Of a stretch of 64,000 nucleotides of DNA, positions 3,568-58,826 are shown one piece after another. The stretch is taken from positions 109,443-173,442 of the IMG/VR virus record IMGVR_UViG_2595698871_000001; one strand, 5' to 3'. How positions within the stretch are numbered: the first letter of the stretch is position 1; the number at the start of each line of letters is the position of its first letter. Position numbers and translations under genes: made by a program. This stretch comes from a virus. Its lineage: Duplodnaviria > Heunggongvirae > Uroviricota > Caudoviricetes. Under the pieces are notes generated by a model, which worked only from the letters and a program-made list of their open reading frames with translations, had not been told where the DNA came from and did no database searches.

Positions 3568-5691
3568 CTAGTAGCTGCCGAACTTCAGGGTGAGAGGGAT
3601 GGTGCGAATCAGCGCTTCCAGGGCCTTGGTGCAGGCGGTGACCTGCTCGGTCGAGGTCGCGTGGTTCGTGTTGTCGAGGAACTTGCGGATCGGGTGGTTG
3701 GACGTGGCGTTCAGCTTGGTATGACCCTCCTCGAACGTCTTGGTCAGTTCCGAGCGCGGCGGCGCCTTGAACTGCCCGTCCACCTCGTAGAGCGCCTTGA
3801 TGAAGGAGCGCTCGCGCTCGGTCCACTCGACGAGGCCGGCGGCCAGCAGCGGCTTGACCGCGCCGAAGTAGGCCGCGACCGACGACTTCATCCGCGTCAG
3901 GCGGTCGAAATCGGCCGGGCACTTCTCGATCGCCCGGTTGTAGAAGCCGTAGGCCGTCGACGAGGTCGACAGCTTCTGCACCGCCACCACGCAGTCATCC
4001 AGGCTGACCTTGTGCTTGGCCTGGATCGCCGCGTCGATCGCCTCGCGCATGGTCGGGACCTTGGCGTCCTCGACGTGCTTCTGGGCGGTGGGCGAGGCGA
4101 TGTAGATGTGCTTGATGCCGTACTTGTTGGCGACGACGAAGACGTCCTCGGCCTTCTTGCGGTACTGGTCCGACGACACCCAGGCCACGGTCCCGGCAGG
4201 GAAGGTCTCCACGCCGGTCACCGCCATCTGCTCGCCCGCGCGCTTGGCCAGGGCCAGACCCCGGATCGGCGGCACATAGGCGGGCGCGTCCTTGCTGACC
4301 TTGTCGCGGCGCGGGACCTCGCCCTTGAGCGTGGCCACGTCGATGTCCTCGAACTTGGCGGTCGGCAGGGCGCAGTTCCAGAAGGCCTTGTCCCGGTCGT
4401 AGCCGAGCATGAAGACCCCGTCCTTCAGGTTCTTGCTCTCCAGGTAGAGGCGCAGGATGCGCGCAAGGCGGCGCGTCTCGCTCTGGGAGAACTCGCGCTT
4501 GGTCGAGTCGTCGCGCGACGGGTCGAGCAGGTCGGAGATGTCGCGCAGGACCAGGAAGTGGGTTTCGGCCTTCTGGCTCAGGTCGAGCGTGTTCTCGATC
4601 CGGTAGCCCCAGCGCTCGCGGTGCTGGTCGAACGAGGCCTTGTAGAGGCAGGCCACGCCAGGGAAGGAGATCGTCGTGCTTTCCAGGCCCGTGGCCGGGT
4701 GCTTGGGCTTGCTGCTGATGAACGGCGGGCGCAGCTTGTTGTGGGTCGCGAAGAACTCGGTGACCGACTGGATGTCCTTGATCTTGACCCAGATCGCCGC
4801 CTCGACGTCTTGGCTGATCGTGCCGATGATGTCTTGCAGGGCCTTGACCGCTTCGGGCTTGTACTGGATTTCTTCCCGCGACGGGATGGGCTCGACCGTG
4901 CCCATCGGCACCGTGATCAGCCACTTGCGGCCGTTGTCGTGGGGCAGGCTCAGACCGCCCTTGGCGGCCAGCGGGTAGATGGCGCAGCCCTGGCGCACGT
5001 TCCACGTCGCCGGCAGGGCCGAGTTCTCGTAGGCGGCCCAGGTGCCGTCGGCGGCTTCGTACTGCGGCATGCCCAGCGGCTGGCCCAGGTCGATGTTGCT
5101 GTCGTACATGGGGATGAAGCCCATGGCGACGTTCTTGACGGCGCGCTCGAAGGAGGCGAAGTCGGTGGGGTTGACCGCGACGGTGACGCGCACGCCGGCC
5201 GGCTCGGAGCAGTCCTCGGTGCCCTGGAGCATGACGCGCGGCACGCCGCCCTTGCCGATCGCGGCGGTGTAGTGGCGCACGACGTCGCCGTCGTAGCAGG
5301 ACAGGGCGAATTGGGAGGTGTAGGCGAACGGGCTCTTGGAGCCCAGGCCGAAGGCGCCGGTGAGATCGTCGGTCTCGTCCTTGTCCGACTCGAACAGGGT
5401 CGAGTAGAGGTGCATGACCTTGGCGTGGTCCATGCCGGGGCCGTAGTCGCGCACGTAGAATTCGGGGCGCATTTCGCTGGGGACGTGGACGAAGAAGCTG
5501 CCGGGGTAGCCGGCGACGATATGGGCGTCCTGGGCGTTCGAGCAGATTTCCCGCACCAGCGAGCCGATCTTGTCCGAGTAGAGCCCGTCGATCAGCATCC
5601 GGAACGCTTTGCCAGACGCCTTGATCTTGAACTCTTGCTCCTCCTGAACGCCGATGGTTTCGAGGAAGACCGGTTCGGTTGCAAGCCGCAT
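3568..5691 (-). CDS. rIIA: rIIA-like protein (N-terminal GHKL/HATPase_c ATPase fold)
   Basis: GHKL boxes LVREICSNAQDA (N box), VRDYGPGMD (G1) and GAFGLGSKS (G2); about 700 aa; directly upstream of rIIB; start taken at ATG 5691 (tggag RBS); the ORF-track start at 5697 is a TTG. Confidence 0.8.
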   Translation of the reverse strand: MRLATEPVFLETIGVQEEQEFKIKASGKAFRMLIDGLYSDKIGSLVREICSNAQDAHIVAGYPGSFFVHVPSEMRPEFYVRDYGPGMDHAKVMHLYSTLFESDKDETDDLTGAFGLGSKSPFAYTSQFALSCYDGDVVRHYTAAIGKGGVPRVMLQGTEDCSEPAGVRVTVAVNPTDFASFERAVKNVAMGFIPMYDSNIDLGQPLGMPQYEAADGTWAAYENSALPATWNVRQGCAIYPLAAKGGLSLPHDNGRKWLITVPMGTVEPIPSREEIQYKPEAVKALQDIIGTISQDVEAAIWVKIKDIQSVTEFFATHNKLRPPFISSKPKHPATGLESTTISFPGVACLYKASFDQHRERWGYRIENTLDLSQKAETHFLVLRDISDLLDPSRDDSTKREFSQSETRRLARILRLYLESKNLKDGVFMLGYDRDKAFWNCALPTAKFEDIDVATLKGEVPRRDKVSKDAPAYVPPIRGLALAKRAGEQMAVTGVETFPAGTVAWVSSDQYRKKAEDVFVVANKYGIKHIYIASPTAQKHVEDAKVPTMREAIDAAIQAKHKVSLDDCVVAVQKLSTSSTAYGFYNRAIEKCPADFDRLTRMKSSVAAYFGAVKPLLAAGLVEWTERERSFIKALYEVDGQFKAPPRSELTKTFEEGHTKLNATSNHPIRKFLDNTNHATSTEQVTACTKALEALIRTIPLTLKFGSY

Positions 5692-5699
5692 TATCAACT

Positions 5700-5775
5700 C
5701 CAGAGGAGAGTGGTTAGGTGGATGTCGACGATCCTTCTATCCAGGGCATCCGGTTCTGTCAACACACTCGCTCCG
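5700..5775 (-). promoter_or_regulatory. consensus promoter/leader element driving rIIA-rIIB
   Basis: Reverse complement reads gagcgaGTGTGTTGACAGaaccggatgccctggaTAGAAGGatcgtcgac...ggag..ATG; TTGACA, 17 nt, TAGAAG. Confidence 0.55.
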
Positions 5776-5998
5776 GCTTTTTGGTCGTGAATCTTGACGT
5801 TCTCGCACGGGTCAGGCACAATTTTCTCATGTGGTCAATCCGCAACATCACGACCGAAGCCTCCCACTCGATTCGCACCTGCACCGCCAAGGACTACCCG
5901 TGGCCTGAGCGGGGGTCGGAGGGCTGCATTTGTCGCGACCCTGGCGCGCGCCGTGACCGGGATTTCATGCTGCTGATCGACCGCCATGGCGAGATTCA

Positions 5999-6424
5999 AT
6001 GGTACGCGAGGACGACATGCCCGATCCACGGCCCGAAGATCACGACGGTGGACGTCGAAACAAAATCCACGACCTGATCGTCGGCGACCCGCGCGAGGAC
6101 CCGCGCTACAATCGCAAGCTCAGCAACCGCGACAAGACCGCCTTCCTCTGCGGCGTCCTGCGCCACCCGGCCCAGGCGTTCGACCTGGACCTGCCGTTCC
6201 CGGTCGAGGACTGGGTCGCCTCGGACGACAACTCCCTGATCGTCGCGGGCCTCTACCTGTCGGACCTGCGGCTCCAGTTCTATGACGCCCTGGAGGTCAA
6301 GCCCGACGACGAGCACGGCTTCGTGCGCCAGGGCGAGGCCGAGTTCTGGCACCACGCCTTCAACGTCATGGTCGAGCGCCGCAGCCACGGCGTGCTGGTC
6401 TCCGACGGGCGCGTGCTCAATTGA
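5999..6424 (+). CDS. hypothetical protein (141 aa; alternative start at 6017)
   Basis: Strong high-GC3 codon usage; first gene of the plus-strand block after the divergent region; start ambiguous. Confidence 0.5.
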   Translation: MVREDDMPDPRPEDHDGGRRNKIHDLIVGDPREDPRYNRKLSNRDKTAFLCGVLRHPAQAFDLDLPFPVEDWVASDDNSLIVAGLYLSDLRLQFYDALEVKPDDEHGFVRQGEAEFWHHAFNVMVERRSHGVLVSDGRVLN

Positions 6425-6792
6425 CCCTGCTCTATGACGGCGCCCTGGAAGGCAACTGCGTCGGCCGCTTCGTGCGCGCCGGCCAGACCTTCGACGTCAT
6501 CCGCCCCGGCTACGACGCCCAAGGGGTCAAGCGCCAGACCTGGACCCAGATCATCCACGACGGCGTGCCGGTCTTCGAGGTCAAGGTCCGCACCGACCTC
6601 GACAACGTGATCGACCGCTTCGACGCGCTCTGGGAACGCCACATCGGCGATGACGACGACCTGCTGGCCCGCGCCCTGACCTCGGTCAAGCGCGAGCGGG
6701 CCTCCAAGTTCCGCGATGGCAAGGCCGGCGTCGCGCCCGCCCCGACCCTGGCCCATGACGAGCATCCCTACCCGCCGCATTATGTCGCATAA
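6421..6792 (+). CDS. hypothetical protein (123 aa)
   Basis: TTG start overlapping the upstream TGA (TTGA); good codon usage. Confidence 0.5.
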   Translation: MTLLYDGALEGNCVGRFVRAGQTFDVIRPGYDAQGVKRQTWTQIIHDGVPVFEVKVRTDLDNVIDRFDALWERHIGDDDDLLARALTSVKRERASKFRDGKAGVAPAPTLAHDEHPYPPHYVA

Positions 6793-6793
6793 T

Positions 6794-6866
6794 GTTGGCG
6801 TGAGACTGTTGACATCTCTGATTTTGTGACATAGAAGCCTCCTCGACGACAACGAAGGAGGCTTTC
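6794..6866 (+). promoter_or_regulatory. full-consensus promoter/leader element (GTTGGCGTGAGACTGTTGACAT-N17-TAGAAG-CTCGACGACAACGAAGGAGG)
   Basis: TTGACA at 6809-6814, TAGAAG at 6832-6837, CGACGACAACG at 6844-6854, GGAGG RBS, ATG at 6867. Confidence 0.6.
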
Positions 6867-7493
6867 ATGCCCAAGCGGATCAAAGGCAAGCGTATCGCCC
6901 TGCACCAAGCCAAGGTGCTGGACGCCCAAGAGTTCCAGATGGTTCTCGACCGCGCCGAGCAGGGTGACAACCCGCTGCGTGACCGCGTGCTCTTCAAGCT
7001 CTCCTTCTACTGCGGCATGCGTGTCGCCGAGATCGCCGGCCTGGAGTGGCGCAAGCACCTCCTGGACGCCAGCGGCCGGCTGCGCCCCGCCATCCACATC
7101 ACCCACGACATCGGCAAGAACGCCGTCGCCCGCCACGTCCCGATCGAGGCGTCGCTGGCGGCTGACCTGCGCGCCCTGCGCAAGGAACGCGGCGGCGATC
7201 GCTTCGTTGTCTACCCGCTGCGCGCCTCGATGCGCGGTGGTCCCGAGAAGACCGACGCCAACACCCTGGCTCAATACATGCGCCGCATGTACCGCGAGAT
7301 CGGGCTGGACGGCGCCTCGTCGCACTCGGGCCGCCGCACCTTCATCACCGATCTGGCGCGCAAGGCGAACATGTTCGACTGCTCGCTCCGGGACATCCAG
7401 GAGATGGTCGGGCACCGGCGGATCGAAACGACCGGGACCTATATCGAGACGAGCCCCCGCCAGGACCGGCTCGTCAACATGGTCCTGCGATAG
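6867..7493 (+). CDS. tyrosine recombinase (phage-integrase family), catalytic domain only
   Basis: Box [25 protein letters not shown]; [14 protein letters not shown] (H..R); box [22 protein letters not shown] (catalytic Tyr); only 208 aa, no N-terminal core-binding/SAM-like domain. Confidence 0.75.
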
Positions 7494-7502
7494 GGGGCGG
7501 CG

Positions 7503-7913
7503 ATGACCTTCATCTGCACCGAACTGGACAACGCCACCCCCGTCGACCTGGACGCGGCCGAGGCCCTCCTCGCCACGACCCCGCGCAAGCGCGCCAACTT
7601 CGCCAAGGCCAAGGGTGTCTGCCGCGAGTGCGGCGCGCCCAAGCACGAGCGCCGCCTGGGCGCGGACTTCTGCTCGGCCCGCTGCCGCTCGGACTTCCAC
7701 AACCGGGCCAAGATGGAAGGCGCCTCGATCGTCCACATCATCAAGCGCTGGCGCCGTTACCGCCGCCCCGGCGATTTCGCCCTGATGACCAAGATGGCTG
7801 ATGACCTGATCCGCATGGACAAGGCCCTGAAGCGCGACTTCTACCCCGATCCGCCGGCCACCGCCCACGCCAAGGTCGTCGCCACCAATATCGCCGGCCG
7901 CCGCCGCGCCTGA
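7503..7913 (+). CDS. hypothetical protein with a Cys4 zinc-ribbon (CRECG...CSARC)
   Basis: ORF with good codon usage; C-x2-C-x13-C-x3-C motif; basic C-terminus. Confidence 0.5.
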   Translation: MTFICTELDNATPVDLDAAEALLATTPRKRANFAKAKGVCRECGAPKHERRLGADFCSARCRSDFHNRAKMEGASIVHIIKRWRRYRRPGDFALMTKMADDLIRMDKALKRDFYPDPPATAHAKVVATNIAGRRRA

Positions 7914-7928
7914 AGTAAGGAGTACAGC

Positions 7929-8183
7929 TTGAACCAACCCACCGAGAAGCCCGTGTTCGCCACCGAGAGCGGCGGTTACCTTTTCCAGGTCTACGCCGCA
8001 CCGGCTGACCACGGCCGCGCCTACCTGGGCTTCTGCGACGGCGTCCTGAGCGTCAGCGGCGACACCGTCGATGTCACCCTGCGCGCCCTGGCCCGCAAGC
8101 ACGCCGAGCCCAAGCGCACGGCCCAGGTCATCGACTTCACCGCCGAAAAGCTCAAGCGCCTGGGCGCGGTGGTCGCGGCCTGA
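7929..8183 (+). CDS. hypothetical protein (84 aa)
   Basis: TTG start 8 nt after an AAGGAG RBS. Confidence 0.45.
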   Translation: MNQPTEKPVFATESGGYLFQVYAAPADHGRAYLGFCDGVLSVSGDTVDVTLRALARKHAEPKRTAQVIDFTAEKLKRLGAVVAA

Positions 8184-8572
8184 TGGCGTCTCCTGTCGAA
8201 GAGCGCCTGGACCCGACGATCCTGGCCCCGCTCATCTACCGCCACTTCTACAACGGTCCCGTCGGCGGCGCGGCCTTCCGCCTCGCGCGGATCATCCGCA
8301 ACCACGCCATGGGCCTGCCGATCCTGTCGTTCGCCGAGGTGCTCGACGAGTACCTGAACGCCAAGCTCGGACTCAATGACAGCGCCGACCCCGAGATCAG
8401 GGCGGAGAACGAGCGCACCCTCAAGACCGCCCGCGCGGCGTTCTGGAAGGCGCTCAACGGCATAGGCGATCCCGAGCACGTCGACGGACTGGTCCGCTAT
8501 GCCCAGGCCAAGAGCCTGAGCGAGTGCATCGCCGAGACCCTTGAAAAACGTCGTCCGCAACAACTGTCATGA
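8183..8572 (+). CDS. hypothetical protein (129 aa)
   Basis: ATG overlaps the upstream TGA; good codon usage. Confidence 0.5.
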   Translation: MASPVEERLDPTILAPLIYRHFYNGPVGGAAFRLARIIRNHAMGLPILSFAEVLDEYLNAKLGLNDSADPEIRAENERTLKTARAAFWKALNGIGDPEHVDGLVRYAQAKSLSECIAETLEKRRPQQLS

Positions 8573-8575
8573 ATC

Positions 8576-8639
8576 TTGACACCTGTCGGGAAAGGGGGCT
8601 AGATGACCCCCGCCTTTCACCCCCGTCCCGACAGGCTTC
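8576..8639 (+). promoter_or_regulatory. promoter (TTGACA-N17-CTAGAT) overlapped by a 10-bp inverted repeat (putative operator) upstream of the primase gene
   Basis: TTGACA 8576-8581, CTAGAT 8599-8604; inverted repeat CCTGTCGGGA (8582-8591) / TCCCGACAGG (8626-8635) flanking a GGGGG..CCCCC core. Confidence 0.4.
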
Positions 8640-11600
8640 ATGTCCGATCCCTTTGATTTCCTCGCCGCGCTGTTCGCGGCGCATGAAGGCCCGATCGCCT
8701 TCGAACACGACAACAAGACCGTCAAGACCCGCGAACCTGAGTTCGTCGAGGATCATGCCGGCGCCCTTTACGTCTCGCCGTCCACGCCGGACGGCCGCGT
8801 CGCCTTCGTGTTTGGTTCCGACCAGGACGTCGACCGCGACGCCTGGGAGTCGTTCCGCCTCAAGCCGACCGTGGTCCTCTACAAGGAGAAGACCGGCGAC
8901 ATGATCGTCGCCTGGGCCTTCGAGGAGACCCAGGAGCCCGACGACGTCCGCCGGCTGGCCGACGCCCTGGGCATGGCTGATCTGGAAGAGCCGATCCCGC
9001 TGCCGGGCACCAACGGCTGGACCTTGGTCCACGCCGAGGAGAGCGACTACTACAAGCTCGACGAGGTCGAACGCGTGTACGCGCCTGACCGCAAGGTCGG
9101 CTACCCCGACCCGCCCAAGAACCGGCAAAAAGATCGGCAATTTTCTGACACGGCTTCCTCGCAAGCCTCGGAAAAGGCTGGGAAAAAGGCTGCTTCGAAG
9201 ACCGGCAAGAAAACCGGCGCCGACGACCCGCCGTGGGACGAGGACCTCGGCGTTTATGCCGACGCCCAAATCAAGACCCGCTACGACGAGAGCGACCCGG
9301 CCCTGAGCCGCGAGATCATCGTCTCGGTCGGCGGCAACAGCAAGTCGATGAACTGGCAACCCAAGGCCATGCCCCTGGGCGCGTTCGTCGCGCAGTTCTG
9401 CCAGCACCGCGAGGGCGCCAAGGATGGCGTCTCCTTCGTCATGGGCGACATGGTGCCCGGCCAGCGCAAGAAGACGGCGGTCAAGGCCCTCTACGCGGTG
9501 GGCCTGGACGTCGACGTCGGCATGGCCTCCTCGGCGATCGACGCGGCGCTGAAGAAGTTCGGCCGCATGGCCGTGCGCTACACCACCCACTCGCACCTGA
9601 AGTCGGTCACGGACGTCAAGAAGGACGTGCTGATCAAGTGGTGCGAGCAGGAAGCCGACGGCGCCGACTACGAAGAGGACGAGGTCCTCCAGCGCTACTT
9701 CCTGGCCAAGGACCTGATGACGCCGGAGATCGCCAAGACGGTCGAGTTCAACGGCACCGAGCACAAGGATGGCGGCATCATGGTGAGCGTCAAGCACGCT
9801 CCCATCGCCAAGCACCGGATCATCGTGCCGCTCGCCGAGGCGTTCGACATCTCCAAGGTCGCCCCGACCCAGAAGGAGGCGATGGAAAAGTGGGCCAAGG
9901 TCCCGACCGCCCTGGCGGCGGAACTGGGCGTGCCGCTCGACAAGTCGTGCCTGGACCCCTCGCGCCTGTTCTATCTGCCGCGCCACGCCAAGGGCAAGCC
10001 GTTCGAGGTCAGCCTGTTCGGCGGCGACCTGTTCGACTGGAAGAGCCTGACGCTCGACGATCCGTTCGAGGCCGAGATCGCCAAGCTCTCCAAGGGCACC
10101 AGCAAGTCCAAGACCGCCGCCGGCCGTGACCTCGGCCGCTGGTCGATGAAGGCCGCCCACGGCTTCCAGGTCGTGCAGGTGATGGAGGAGCACTGCCCCG
10201 ACAAGCTGCGCCATCAGGTCTCGGCCGGCTACGAGATCGAGTGCCCGTTCGACGACCTGCACTCCAACGCCGGCGACACCGAGGACCGCGCCTGTCTGGC
10301 GGTCAATGCCGGCGACGGCCCTAGCGAGTGGTTCACCGTCCGCTGCCAGCACGAGTCCTGCCGCGAGTTCACCAACCTCGACATGCTGGGCAAGATGGTC
10401 GAGGACGGTTGGTTCGATCGCGCCTGCCTGGACGACGAGGACTACAACATCGTCGAGGCCGAGAACGCTCCCAACCCGGTGGCGGCCAAGCGCATCGAGA
10501 CCGAGGACAAGGCCAAGGAAGCCTACATGCAGGCGATCTTCGACCTGCCCGAGGTGGACTTCACCGACGACGACGTCGACAAGGTGGTGCGGACCTGCTG
10601 CGAGGCCGCCCTGGGGACCCTGGCCGAGAACAAGGCCAAGGACGCCCTCAAGGCGCGCCTGGGCGTCAACGGCACGGTCATCAACAAGATGTTCAAGGAC
10701 ATGAAGGCGGCCATCGCCCGTGACCAGAACACCGAGGGCAACATCAAGGACCCGCTGGGCCGCAGCGTCTTCTCCTACGCTGGCGAGTTCAACTTCGACG
10801 AGGCGTTCTCCTGCTGCTTCCGGGCGCTGCTGAACACCAACCGCGAGAAGGACCAGCCGATCTTCTCCTGCTTGCAGGACAAGCCGGTCCGGATGGCGAC
10901 GGACGTCGATGGGCGCCTGAAGTTCACCGAGATCGGGGCCTCGGCCGCGATGAACGCCGAACTGAACGAGCTTGTCACCTTCGTGCGCAAGAACGACCAG
11001 GGCACGGGTGTGCGCGGCCGGGTGCCTGACGACGTCGCCCGCCACGTCTACGAGAAGTGCTACACCCGTCTGCCCCGGACGCCCGAGATCATGTACACCC
11101 CGATCTATACGGCCGACGGTGACCTGATCCGCAAGCCGGGCTGGTATCAGAACCTGGACATCATGATGGCCGACATCGGCTTCCAGGTGCCCAAGGTCTT
11201 CAGCGACCCCACGCCCGAGGAGGTCCAGGAGGCCGTGCGCCTGCTGACCGACGACGTGCTGATCGACTTCCCGTTCCTGGACTACGACACCCAGGGCAAC
11301 GAGCGTCGCGAGCCGTCGCTGGCCAACGCCATGGCGATGTTGATCACCCCGTTCATGCGCCGCATGATCGATAGCTGCACCCCGGTGTTCTTCGTCTCCA
11401 AGCCCACGCCGGGCACGGGCGGCACGTTCCTGGGCATGGTGCCGATCATCCTCTTCGACGGGGAAGAGCCGGCCCCGATCCGCTATACCCAGAACGAGGA
11501 GGAGATGCAGAAGGCCCTCCTGGCGTCGCTGATGAATTCGAAGGCCTACCTGTTCTTCGATGACGTGAAGGAGTTTAACAACCGGGTGTTGCTGATGGCG

Positions 11601-12296
11601 ATCACCTCGCGTTATATTGGTGGCCGCGTCCTGGGCTCCTCGAAGAACATCGAGATGCCCAACAACTCGATCTGGATCGCCACGGGCAACAACCCGCTGA
11701 TCTCCTCGGAAATGGCCCGCCGGGTGGTCGACATCCGCCTCAACGCCAAGACCTCGGACATCCAGAAGCGCACCTATCGCCACCCCGACTACGTCCAGTG
11801 GCTGAAGGCCAACCGGGGCGAGATCGTCCACGCGATCCTGACCCTGATCGCCCACTGGATCAACTGCGGCATGCCCAAGTTCACGGCGCGCAAGCGTGCC
11901 TCGTTCGAGGACTGGTCCGAGAAGGTCGGCGGCGTGCTGATGTGCGCCAACATCGACGGCTTCCTGGACAACCGCCGCTCGGTGGCCGCCGACATGGACG
12001 AGGCCGCGATCAAGCAGTTCGTCCGCGACTGGCTGCTGAAGTGGGGCGAGAAGGCTCCGGTCAAGATCGCCGACCTGTGGAGCTACGCTTTCGACATGGA
12101 ACTCGACATCGTGTCGGGCGCCAACGACGACCAGAAGAAGGCCCGCTTCATGCGCATCCTTCCGACCCTGGACGGCCGGACGTTCAAGATGCCGCGCGGC
12201 GACTGCATGGTCCGCGCAGGCGCCGACGTCGACGGCAACGTCACCTATCATCTGGAGCGCTTGAGCGCGCCGGAGGAGGTCCTGGAGACTGCCTGA
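8640..12296 (+). CDS. large replication protein: AEP-superfamily primase-polymerase N-terminus, zinc-binding region, large C-terminal domain (1218 aa)
   Basis: AEP-like motifs VGLDVDVG (DxD), RYTTHSH (sxH), DKSCLDPSRLFYLPRHAKG (motif III-like); Cys/His cluster HCPDKL...ECPFDDLHS...RCQHESC; no Walker A found, so the C-terminal domain is not an obvious helicase. Confidence 0.55.
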   Translation: MSDPFDFLAALFAAHEGPIAFEHDNKTVKTREPEFVEDHAGALYVSPSTPDGRVAFVFGSDQDVDRDAWESFRLKPTVVLYKEKTGDMIVAWAFEETQEPDDVRRLADALGMADLEEPIPLPGTNGWTLVHAEESDYYKLDEVERVYAPDRKVGYPDPPKNRQKDRQFSDTASSQASEKAGKKAASKTGKKTGADDPPWDEDLGVYADAQIKTRYDESDPALSREIIVSVGGNSKSMNWQPKAMPLGAFVAQFCQHREGAKDGVSFVMGDMVPGQRKKTAVKALYAVGLDVDVGMASSAIDAALKKFGRMAVRYTTHSHLKSVTDVKKDVLIKWCEQEADGADYEEDEVLQRYFLAKDLMTPEIAKTVEFNGTEHKDGGIMVSVKHAPIAKHRIIVPLAEAFDISKVAPTQKEAMEKWAKVPTALAAELGVPLDKSCLDPSRLFYLPRHAKGKPFEVSLFGGDLFDWKSLTLDDPFEAEIAKLSKGTSKSKTAAGRDLGRWSMKAAHGFQVVQVMEEHCPDKLRHQVSAGYEIECPFDDLHSNAGDTEDRACLAVNAGDGPSEWFTVRCQHESCREFTNLDMLGKMVEDGWFDRACLDDEDYNIVEAENAPNPVAAKRIETEDKAKEAYMQAIFDLPEVDFTDDDVDKVVRTCCEAALGTLAENKAKDALKARLGVNGTVINKMFKDMKAAIARDQNTEGNIKDPLGRSVFSYAGEFNFDEAFSCCFRALLNTNREKDQPIFSCLQDKPVRMATDVDGRLKFTEIGASAAMNAELNELVTFVRKNDQGTGVRGRVPDDVARHVYEKCYTRLPRTPEIMYTPIYTADGDLIRKPGWYQNLDIMMADIGFQVPKVFSDPTPEEVQEAVRLLTDDVLIDFPFLDYDTQGNERREPSLANAMAMLITPFMRRMIDSCTPVFFVSKPTPGTGGTFLGMVPIILFDGEEPAPIRYTQNEEEMQKALLASLMNSKAYLFFDDVKEFNNRVLLMAITSRYIGGRVLGSSKNIEMPNNSIWIATGNNPLISSEMARRVVDIRLNAKTSDIQKRTYRHPDYVQWLKANRGEIVHAILTLIAHWINCGMPKFTARKRASFEDWSEKVGGVLMCANIDGFLDNRRSVAADMDEAAIKQFVRDWLLKWGEKAPVKIADLWSYAFDMELDIVSGANDDQKKARFMRILPTLDGRTFKMPRGDCMVRAGADVDGNVTYHLERLSAPEEVLETA

Positions 12297-26769: not shown

Positions 26770-26840
26770 AAGGGCCTCCGGCGTTGTCGTCGAAGGCCCT
26801 TCTAGCGAGTCGGTGTCAGGCTGTCAACACTTGTCAGCCA
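26770..26840 (-). promoter_or_regulatory. consensus promoter/leader element
   Basis: Reverse complement reads GTGTTGACAGcc..(17)..CTAGAAGGGCcttCGACGACAACGccGGAGGcc..ATG. Confidence 0.55.
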
Positions 26841-33700: not shown

Positions 33701-33775
33701 ATCGGGTCTCCTTGTTGTCGTCGGGCGTGACTTCTAGCCGGCGTCCGTGGGGCTGTCAACACTTTCGCTCACGGG
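33701..33775 (-). promoter_or_regulatory. consensus promoter/leader element (its -35 lies inside the last codons of the upstream gene, and its -10 CTAGAAG contains that gene's TAG stop)
   Basis: Reverse complement reads aaGTGTTGACAGccccacggacgccggCTAGAAGtcacgccCGACGACAACaAGGAGacccgatTTG. Confidence 0.55.
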
Positions 33776-35199: not shown

Positions 35200-35280
35200 G
35201 GCGGGTCTCCATCAGCAGGTGATGGAGCCCTTCTAGGCCCTCTCGACCTAGCCTGTCAACACTCTCGCGCCAACAAAATG
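35200..35280 (-). promoter_or_regulatory. consensus promoter/leader element
   Basis: Reverse complement reads ttGTTGGCGCGAGAGTGTTGACAGGctaggtcgagagggcCTAGAAGGGCtccatcacctgctgatGGAGAcccgcGTG. Confidence 0.55.
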
Positions 35281-38907: not shown

Positions 38908-38990
38908 GAGAGGTCTCCTCTGTCGTTGTCGTCGAGGGGCTTATAGGCGGAGGTCAGTGACCTGTCAACACTCTCACGCCAACTTTACGC
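38908..38990 (-). promoter_or_regulatory. full-consensus promoter/leader element
   Basis: Reverse complement reads aaaGTTGGCGTGAGAGTGTTGACAGGtcactgacctccgccTATAAGcccCTCGACGACAACGACAGAGGAGacctctcTTG. Confidence 0.6.
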
Positions 38991-40715: not shown

Positions 40716-40795
40716 CGCGGTCTCCAGATTGTCGTCGTCTCGACATCTAAGAGGCTTTTCCGAGCCTGTCAACACAATCACGCCAGCGATTGGGG
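40716..40795 (-). promoter_or_regulatory. consensus promoter/leader element
   Basis: Reverse complement reads ccaatcGCTGGCGTGATTGTGTTGACAGGctcggaaaagcctCTTAGATgtCGAGACGACGACAAtcTGGAGAccgcgATG. Confidence 0.5.
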
Positions 40796-43901: not shown

Positions 43902-43980
43902 GGACTTCCCCTTCTGCTGCTGCCCGGCGCTTCTAGCGAAGCTTCACCAGGACGTCAACACTCTAACGCCAGACCCAACT
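43902..43980 (-). promoter_or_regulatory. consensus promoter/leader element (TTGACG variant)
   Basis: Reverse complement reads gttgggtCTGGCGTTAGAGTGTTGACGtcctggtgaagcttcgCTAGAAGcgccgggcagcagcagAAGGGGAagtccTTG. Confidence 0.55.
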
Positions 43981-53273: not shown

Positions 53274-53345
53274 GGGAACTCCTCTATGTCGTCGTCTCGA
53301 CCCTTCTAGGTGGAGGTTACCGTTCTGTCAACACACAACCGCCAA
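53274..53345 (-). promoter_or_regulatory. consensus promoter/leader element
   Basis: Reverse complement reads cctcGTTGGCGGTTGTGTGTTGACAGaacggtaacctccacCTAGAAGGGtCGAGACGACGACAtAGAGGAGttcccGTG. Confidence 0.55.
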
Positions 53346-56731: not shown

Positions 56732-56868
56732 GACGCTCCTCGATTTTCGCCGGCACCCTAGAGGAGCGCCGATGTGTTGACAAGCGCCAAATGGCTCTGG
56801 CTGGCGAGTGTTGACAAGGCGGCGGTGGTCCCTTAGAAGGGCGGCGACGACAACGAAAGGAGGCGCTG
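56732..56868. promoter_or_regulatory. divergent promoter hub: minus-facing element plus two tandem plus-facing GTGTTGACAAG boxes, then CTTAGAAGG, CGACGACAACG and AAGGAGG
   Basis: Plus strand: TTGACA at 56776-56781 and 56811-56816, TAGAAG at 56834-56839, CGACGACAACG at 56845-56855, ATG at 56869; minus side: cctctaggg-like -10 at 56756-56764 and a gaggag RBS. Confidence 0.5.
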
Positions 56869-58762: not shown

Positions 58763-58826
58763 GAGTGTTGACAGCCTCGCCGCGCCCGGCTACAAGCCTC
58801 CTCGACGACAACGCAAGGAGCCTGTC
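58750..58826 (+). promoter_or_regulatory. full-consensus promoter/leader element
   Basis: GTTGGCGTGAGAGTGTTGACAGcc..CTACAAG..CTCGACGACAACGcAAGGAGcctgtcTTG; TTGACA at 58768-58773. Confidence 0.6.

Follow-up and report, generated by a model that had tools for sequence, protein, structure and literature searches.

The gene gp292 of Caulobacter phage CcrRogue encodes what looks, from its sequence and a structural model, like an intact, catalytically competent tyrosine recombinase made of the catalytic domain alone and kept by selection. It lies in a 64,000-nt stretch of viral DNA (the window), positions 109,443 to 173,442 of IMG/VR record IMGVR_UViG_2595698871_000001; a window coordinate equals the record coordinate minus 109442. 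The 4 kb around the gene are 100% identical to the CcrRogue genome (NC_019408), and a 213-kb unit genome of this phage was assembled for genome-wide scans. We tentatively propose a Cre-like role for the protein, possible but short of probable, in which it would keep the phage chromosome as circular monomers by acting on a putative phage-borne site.

The gene and its odd architecture are already known, having been published in 2012. CcrRogue is one of the six phiCbK-like phages sequenced by Gill et al. (2012; PMC3556154), and phiCbK gp143 with its orthologues in six phiCbK-like phages is the same protein family as gp292, the gene itself being no different. Gill et al. described the gp143 family as a catalytic core only, with R52 equivalent to Cre R173 and no N-terminal clamp. 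In their proposal the most likely task of the recombinase is to resolve replicative intermediates or multimers formed by recombination, possibly with the help of an accessory protein. The central observation of a first-pass annotation of the window, a mini-recombinase without the usual N-terminal domain, and its leading interpretation therefore repeat a published statement. Resolution of concatemers or dimers is also the role that we consider most plausible, as these authors hypothesised, and it is not new. The present analysis adds the size of the family, its synteny, the promoter class, negative site searches, a structural model and a link to the episomes reported in 2025.

Active site, domain content and fold

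The coding sequence and its catalytic codons are positioned as follows.

6867..7493, + strand: gp292, recombinase coding sequence, 208-aa open reading frame (ORF), 100% identical to NC_019408 coding sequence D869_gp292, 'putative tyrosine recombinase'
7020-7022, 7116-7118, 7323-7325, 7332-7334, 7413-7415 and 7440-7442, + strand: catalytic codons R52, K84, H153, R156, H183 and Y192, respectively

Pfam family PF00589 (Phage_integrase) matches aa 16-196 at 71.2 bits (cut-off 27.1), and the PHROG profile phrog_216, 'integrase', aligns with aa 3-203 over profile positions 41-232 of 301 (E = 1.9e-42). The protein carries the full set R52, K84, H153-x-x-R156, H183 and Y192. This R-K-H-x-x-R-H-Y set is invariant in alignments of 10 and of 52 family members, and box II, SSHSGRRTF, is invariant as well. 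The first-pass description of a 208-aa protein with all catalytic boxes is thus borne out by the ORF, the Pfam score and the alignment; R52, R156 and Y192, whose absence it had named as the point on which the assignment could fail, are all in place.

The catalytic domain begins at about aa 16, and no N-terminal core-binding (SAM-like) domain is found by Pfam or in an AlphaFold2 model built on the 52-sequence alignment; the arm-binding domain of temperate integrases is likewise absent. The model is a single domain (predicted local distance difference test score, pLDDT, 91.6; predicted template-modelling score, pTM, 0.86). In the model, an N-terminal tail of about 15 aa is disordered and basic, being rich in lysine and arginine, and a C-terminal helix spans residues 199-207 after Y192. 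The helix at that position serves tetramer contacts in Cre and the Xer proteins. A Foldseek search with the model returns, at probability 1.00, the catalytic domains only of IntI, XerA, XerH, Cre, lambda Int and Tn1549 Int. All of the top 50 fold matches are recombinases and none is a topoisomerase. The missing core-binding domain, also noted in the first pass, is therefore seen alike in Pfam, in the single-domain model and in fold matches confined to the catalytic domain. Rfam gives no match, and no relation to a defence system was found.

Placement by hidden Markov model (HMM), which the first-pass annotation had suggested as a check, brings gp292 nearest to the Xer models and leaves it below the cut-offs for XerC/XerD, integron integrases and Fim invertases. 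Among NCBIfam models, XerC, XerA and XerD score best; they are matched through their C-terminal domains only and far under the equivalog cut-offs (TIGR02224, 56.9 versus 335.15, E 2e-15; TIGR02225, 44.5 versus 329.6). The integron integrase model TIGR02249 reaches 21.7 against a cut-off of 265 and covers aa 131-194 only. Models of Fim-type invertases match the N-terminal part of gp292 weakly (PRK09871, 22 versus 222 bits; PRK09870, 16.4 versus 221). The closest solved protein by sequence is archaeal XerA (4a8e; 5.7e-17), with XerD at 3.2e-12. XerA, XerC and XerD thus provide the best sequence matches, but only via their C-terminal domains, and gp292 differs from them in having no core-binding domain, no dif-like phage site and no FtsK-interaction context.

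The closest architectural parallels are FimB (200 aa) and FimE (198 aa) of Escherichia coli, which also consist of the catalytic domain only, have their first catalytic Arg at about residue 50, and align with gp292 over the full R-K-H-R-H-Y set. Alignment identity is only 25-26%, BLASTP to FimB gives E = 0.002, and box II reads HMLRH in FimB/FimE instead of SSHSGRRTF. FimB and FimE act on an invertible element, whereas none was found adjacent to gp292. They perform complete recombination with the host accessory proteins IHF and Lrp. Because of the low identity, the BLASTP value and invertase HMM scores far under cut-off, we regard FimB and FimE as a precedent for the mechanism and not for the family.

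Cre of phage P1 resembles gp292 in another way: both are tyrosine recombinases of phages that have terminally redundant DNA and are able to live as episomes, and the role proposed for gp292, cyclisation and dimer resolution, is like that of Cre. The fold of the Cre catalytic domain matches the gp292 model with a template-modelling (TM) score of ~0.65-0.70 (query-normalised) at a sequence identity of 15-18%. Cre is longer (343 aa) and has an N-terminal clamp, which gp292 lacks; cre has loxP close by, but no comparable site was found for gp292.

Conservation and genomic context

The ratio of non-synonymous to synonymous substitution rates (dN/dS) of gp292 is 0.20 against the orthologue of CcrBL10, 0.29 against that of phiCbK and 0.39 against that of Karma, which indicates purifying selection. 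The phiCbK protein is 78% identical and has the same 208-aa length. A word-indexed search finds 1254 homologues at E<=1e-5, the best 120 of which are 188-276 aa long with PF00589 as their only domain. An exhaustive profile search over 1.84 billion representatives yields at least 578 clusters (50% identity, E<=1e-30). The top 150 of these 578 clusters span 188-336 aa, mostly 190-210, and their match starts at residue 1-5; ten of the longest family members contain no N-terminal Pfam domain. These sizes, the PF00589-only matches and the ten longest members make the absence of a core-binding domain a stable family trait, and gp292 belongs to a large family of ~190-250-aa recombinases without that domain. 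The first-pass view that the protein is unusual was accordingly overstated, since its architecture is common to at least 578 clusters and to FimB/FimE.

Every CbK-like prolate siphophage searched has the gene (64 records match), and several records annotate it as 'integrase'. Their hosts are Caulobacter, Brevundimonas, Ruegeria/Roseobacter, Phaeobacter, Rhodobacter, Erythrobacter, Citromicrobium, Sphingobium and Mesorhizobium, and one gene-bearing phage is listed as infecting Microcystis. Orthologues are equally short in the 64 phage records and in 68 viral contigs. At 38 of 72 phage and viral-contig loci synteny is kept: a divergent rIIA precedes the gene, a gp288-like primase follows it, or both. 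The recombinase is thus a syntenic core gene of CbK-like phages, located between divergent rIIA and a primase-like gene. Bacterial homologues of ~191 aa (for example in Mesorhizobium) lie in variable islands beside XRE, DUF3768 and nuclease genes; the loci examined share no partner gene, lack flanking repeats and are not in CbK-like prophages.

A fragment of a larger, disrupted integrase, the second possibility raised in the first pass as a challenge to its assignment, was considered and rejected. Five in-frame stop codons occur in the 300 nt upstream, all orthologues are short, and dN/dS is 0.2-0.4. The upstream ORFs are separate conserved families (phrog_10487 and phrog_11328) without integrase similarity. 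Degeneration is excluded because the gene is conserved.

Proposed role and alternative explanations

The virion contains linear DNA that ends in direct repeats of 10.3 kb. Gill et al. (2012) described the phage as non-temperate, and the first-pass annotation held that it otherwise looks virulent. The latter statement is weakened by the report that Rogue- and CbK-species phages, among them RBC8, RBC11 and RBC63, persist as stably inherited episomal pseudolysogens (Mohammadi & Ely 2025). The window and these three phages share 99.8-100% identity. In carriers the phage-sized DNA is free and not integrated, and circularisation of the episome through the terminal repeats is an assumption of the same authors. 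Mascolo et al. (2022) proposed a CtrA-controlled 'lytic deferment', for which the phage chromosome must persist in the cytoplasm ('from circularization to lysogeny'), and reported that BACPHLIP scores CbK-like phages as temperate.

The gene has a host-type phage promoter of its own and stands first in a short sub-operon of the replication module. For the substrate, the biological role and the accessory needs of gp292 we infer the following. The protein would act on a candidate phage site and thereby cyclise the terminally redundant linear genome, resolve circular replicative or episomal multimers, or do both. Because gp292 has no core-binding clamp, it would probably lean on its basic N-terminal tail together with DNA-bending host IHF or HU, or with a phage partner, as FimB and FimE lean on theirs.

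Such a Cre-like role fits a gene that is conserved, is placed in the replication module and belongs to phages with a reported episomal lifestyle. It is supported by a fold that matches recombinases completing strand exchange (XerA, XerH, Cre, IntI and lambda Int) and by the precedent of FimB/FimE, which shows that recombinases of ~200 aa without a core-binding domain achieve full recombination. Lytic deferment adds further support, since it also needs the phage chromosome to survive in the cell. If true, the Cre-like role would explain how supposedly lytic CbK-like phages keep a heritable, intact chromosome during episomal carriage or a cell-cycle-timed delay of lysis, and a compact 208-aa recombinase that recognises its site without a clamp domain might be useful as a tool. 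We think it rather unlikely that gp292 represents a distinct, phage-centred family which in CbK-like phages acts as a dedicated cyclase and monomerase, gives rise to a heritable circular episome as the basis of pseudolysogeny and lytic deferment, and recognises its site in a clamp-free manner.

Several points weigh against the Cre-like role. The recombinase is mentioned by neither Mascolo et al. (2022) nor Mohammadi & Ely (2025), whose evidence for the episome is pulsed-field gel electrophoresis and polymerase chain reaction, and the literature yielded no published experiment on this recombinase in any phage. Partition and plasmid-replication genes are not annotated in the genome, and Mascolo et al. 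(2022) likewise detected none. Homologous recombination between the 10-kb repeats could suffice for cyclisation without a site-specific enzyme. No recombination site was found near the gene, genome-wide or in the terminal repeat. No lox- or dif-like dyad lies beside the gene in CcrRogue or in 50 viral loci, and no convincing lox-like dyad or long-range inverted repeat was found across the genome. The most lox-like dyad of the genome looks from its sequence like a promoter or operator. The terminal repeat shows only CtrA-box clusters and terminator-like hairpins.

The searches behind this result covered several scales. Around the gene (window 5600-8700, >=10 nt), repeats are at chance level only and none is att-like, in keeping with the first-pass statement that att-like repeats, an excisionase and a repressor are missing nearby; no excisionase or repressor match occurs among the nearby ORFs. 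In the same interval no inverted repeats bracket a segment, at a length at which 9-bp repeats, as in fimS, would not stand out. No shared motif upstream of the gene is evident by inspection of the 50 viral loci. Genome-wide, there are 45 lox-like dyads with arms of >=11 nt and a spacer of 5-9 nt, most of which are terminators. The terminal repeats of Rogue and phiCbK contain no additional shared lox-like element. A mimic of the C. crescentus dif site (sequence from PMC2731167), one of the host sites named in the first pass, is not apparent in the phage, the best match being 17/28 as in shuffled genomes.

Three individual candidates were discarded. The palindrome CATTATGTCGCATAATG at 6777-6793, considered as a dif- or lox-like site, overlaps the conserved Y-V-A-stop of gp293 and is absent in phiCbK, and its half-sites are wrongly oriented for dif. 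The hairpin in the leader of gp292 has a CGACGACAAC core and flanks that are common to a whole promoter class (described below). The dyad singled out above as the most lox-like (15-7-15, record position 81917) lies upstream of a helix-turn-helix gene; in Brevundimonas phage Bajun its sequence is kept and the dyad is not.

It is improbable that gp292, as a lone catalytic domain, serves chiefly to relax or nick DNA in the manner of type IB enzymes while the 213-kb genome is replicated and transcribed. Tyrosine recombinases are known to keep cleavage and relaxation activity when reduced to their catalytic domain, the genome has no annotated topoisomerase, and the gene is situated in the replication module just upstream of primase-like gp288; the failure to find a recombination site would also be accounted for. 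The active site is nevertheless of the recombinase type: gp292 has the HxxR histidine and does not match the type IB pentad R-K-R/K-H-Y. The uniform recombinase identity of the top 50 fold matches, the retention in the model of a C-terminal helix that could mediate oligomer contacts, and the true recombinase activity of FimB/FimE, which share the architecture, all argue against a primarily relaxing enzyme.

Inversion of a DNA segment, one of the roles offered in the first pass, would make gp292 a FimB/FimE-like invertase that flips a short phage segment, such as a promoter or a tail-fibre cassette, and so switches expression. We consider this quite improbable. The agreement with FimB/FimE in size and domain architecture, and the weak N-terminal matches to NCBIfam models named 'tyrosine-type DNA invertase', are offset by HMM scores of 22 versus 222 and 16 versus 221 bits and by the poor BLASTP value for FimB. 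A 13-nt element that occurs in both orientations does create 18-19-nt inverted pairs, 1.2 and 3.4 kb apart (record positions 187953/189187/192577). However, inverted pairs of this kind are part of a 14-copy promoter/operator family or of CtrA-box clusters and not a unique pair. The longest inverted repeats genome-wide are the GTTAAC/TTAACCAT clusters of the terminal repeat and opposed copies of the promoter element, and as the top matches of the long-range search they were rejected as ends of an invertible segment. Neither near the gene, where no inverted repeats of >=10 nt bracket a segment, nor in the complete genome, where the first pass had proposed to look for flanking repeats, was there a convincing pair. 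Deposited genomes of close relatives are collinear over the 4 kb tested.

Cryptic true lysogeny, with gp292 as an integrase through which the phage enters the host chromosome, is very improbable. The 'integrase' label in several records, the temperate prediction by BACPHLIP and the existence of lysogen-like carriers point that way. Against them stand the absent arm-binding and core-binding domains, the lack of an excisionase or repressor nearby, carriers whose phage DNA is free, bacterial homologues that occupy unrelated islands instead of CbK-like prophages, and the long-standing description of the phage as non-temperate. Least probable of all is a host-directed enzyme that acts on host DNA for takeover (for example at dif, or with host XerC/D): the catalytic domain is closest to Xer proteins and the promoter is host-type and probably early, but the phage has no dif mimic, the scores are far under the XerC/XerD equivalog cut-offs, and nothing links the recombinase to host sites.

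Two regions outside the window contain other repeated elements. In the terminal-repeat piece of CcrRogue, GTTAAC/TTAACCAT clusters occupy positions 780-870 and 1980-2165, with nine GTTAAC in 190 bp. They include an inverted repeat of 25 nt (2008-2032 / 2126-2150) that is longer than any other in the genome. The motifs match CtrA half-sites and correspond to the CtrA-site-rich regions of Mascolo et al. (2022). Beside the CtrA-box cluster, non-coding positions 1830-1960 of the same piece hold five to six iteron-like copies of CGTTTTGACG(TC), an array that may be origin-like or regulatory. The most AT-rich stretch of the genome, at record positions 207430-207660 (~32% GC versus 66% overall), lies ~4 kb upstream of the terminase genes, within a non-coding gap of 600 bp, and contains TGTGTA repeats and near-palindromes; it is a candidate replication origin or packaging-related site.

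Promoter, leader and neighbouring genes

The gene is preceded by a promoter of a phage-specific class and by a leader hairpin.

6796..6808, + strand: upstream element TGGCGTGAGACTG, directly 5' of the -35 and common to most promoters of the class (context alignment)
6809..6837, + strand: promoter of the phage-specific class, -35 TTGACA (6809-6814), 17-nt spacer, -10-like TAGAAG (6832-6837)
6830..6869, + strand: leader hairpin, in which arm AAGCCTCCT (6835-6843) pairs with AGGAGGCTT (6856-6864) and the loop holds CGACGACAAC (6844-6853)
8576..8605, + strand: next promoter of the class, TTGACA-N18-TAGATG, preceding gp288 and marking the end of the recombinase sub-operon
6809-6837, 8576-8605, 56811-56839 and 58768-58796, + strand: all copies of the class pattern on this strand of the window
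5734-5762, 26799-26827, 33731-33759, ~35230-35259, 38940-38968, 40744-40772, 43930-43958 and 53303-53331, - strand: copies of the class pattern on the opposite strand of the window

The window holds 10 copies of the strict pattern TTGACA-N17-TAGAAG, where 0.14 are expected, and 12 copies if the spacer may vary from 16 to 18 nt. The unit genome has 14 strict copies, all within record positions 115-208 kb. Promoters of the class follow a common order: TGGCG(T/C)GAGAGTG, TTGACA, a 16-18-nt spacer, TAGAAG, 5-8 nt, CGACGACAAC and a strong Shine-Dalgarno sequence. The TGGCGTGAGACTG element presumably binds a regulator. In three genome copies (record positions 175062, 187949 and 192573) this 13-nt upstream element is found reverse-complemented inside the spacer, which suggests a regulator site whose effect depends on orientation. 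The promoter and leader module was not described by Gill et al. (2012).

Before the orthologous gene, a TTGAC[A/G/T] -35 is found at a similar position in phiCbK, Colossus, CcrBL9, Lacusarx, Cp1R7A-A1 and Mwe-JY26. Eight relatives read by eye have a -35 of this type (CTTGCG in DSS3P8) and a plausible -10 before the recombinase gene. A scan for the E. coli-type consensus does not list the promoter at 6809-6837. The first-pass annotation had placed gp292 as the first gene behind the strongest consensus promoter of the early plus-strand operon. The promoter class is real and gp292 is the first gene of its sub-operon, but several copies match the pattern perfectly. Since these perfect matches exist and the elements are shared across the class, the promoter of gp292 is a typical member and not the strongest. 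In the plus-strand block diverging from rIIA, gp292 comes fourth among the ORFs, after gp295, gp294 and gp293, and it heads only the sub-operon gp292-gp289, which ends at the 8576-8605 promoter. The RNA sequencing paper on phiCbK places replication genes among the early ones.

The 40-nt leader hairpin folds with -18.7 kcal/mol (z = -5.2). Its arm AGGAGGCTT holds the Shine-Dalgarno sequence (AAGGAGG, 6855-6861), and its outer pairs reach the ATG at 6867-6869. The same hairpin is present in phiCbK (z = -3.1) and is weaker in Colossus. As a whole the motif is unique in the window, and its CGACGACAAC core recurs in other leaders of the class. If transcription starts ~7 nt past the -10, the anti-Shine-Dalgarno arm would lie outside the promoter's own mRNA, so that only read-through transcripts would be translationally masked. 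At several other promoters of the class, the segment from the -10 to the predicted transcript start pairs in a similar way with the Shine-Dalgarno/ATG region.

The ORFs on either side of gp292 are as follows.

6017..6424, + strand: gp294, 135 aa, small-protein family upstream of the recombinase
6421..6792, + strand: gp293, 123 aa, phrog_11328, kept only in Caulobacter/Brevundimonas-type relatives
7503-7913, + strand: gp291, 136 aa, CxxC-N14-CxxxC zinc-ribbon with a weak DksA-like PHROG match (3.3e-4)
7929-8183, + strand: gp290, ORF of the sub-operon
8183-8572, + strand: gp289, ORF of the sub-operon
8640-12296, + strand: gp288, 1218 aa, PHROG families 'DNA polymerase/primase' and 'DNA primase', no Pfam match

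Proteins like gp294 occur upstream of the recombinase in Caulobacter phages, in Lacusarx and, weakly, in DSS3P8 (alignment and tblastn synteny), with N37 and C45 invariant. An AlphaFold2 model of gp294 is all-alpha with five helices (pLDDT 82). It has no fold match in the PDB at E<0.001 and none to recombinase N-domains, and a PDB sequence search was empty; the idea that gp294 is a detached core-binding domain is therefore not supported, even though the model is all-alpha. As a partner supplying the missing domain, gp293 was set aside because only close relatives have it. In Rogue- and CbK-type phages, gp291 is co-transcribed with the recombinase; in Colossus and CcrBL9 it is missing from that place and so is not an obligatory partner. 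A dedicated partner protein for the recombinase is not supported among these neighbours (gp294, gp293 and gp291).

Downstream of the sub-operon, gp288 is kept behind the recombinase in many relatives, and from its PHROG matches it is probably a replicative primase-helicase. A promoter complementary to its own leader is seen again at 8577-8640, where a 21-nt inverted repeat (81% complementary) connects the spacer of the gp288 promoter with the region before the gp288 start codon.

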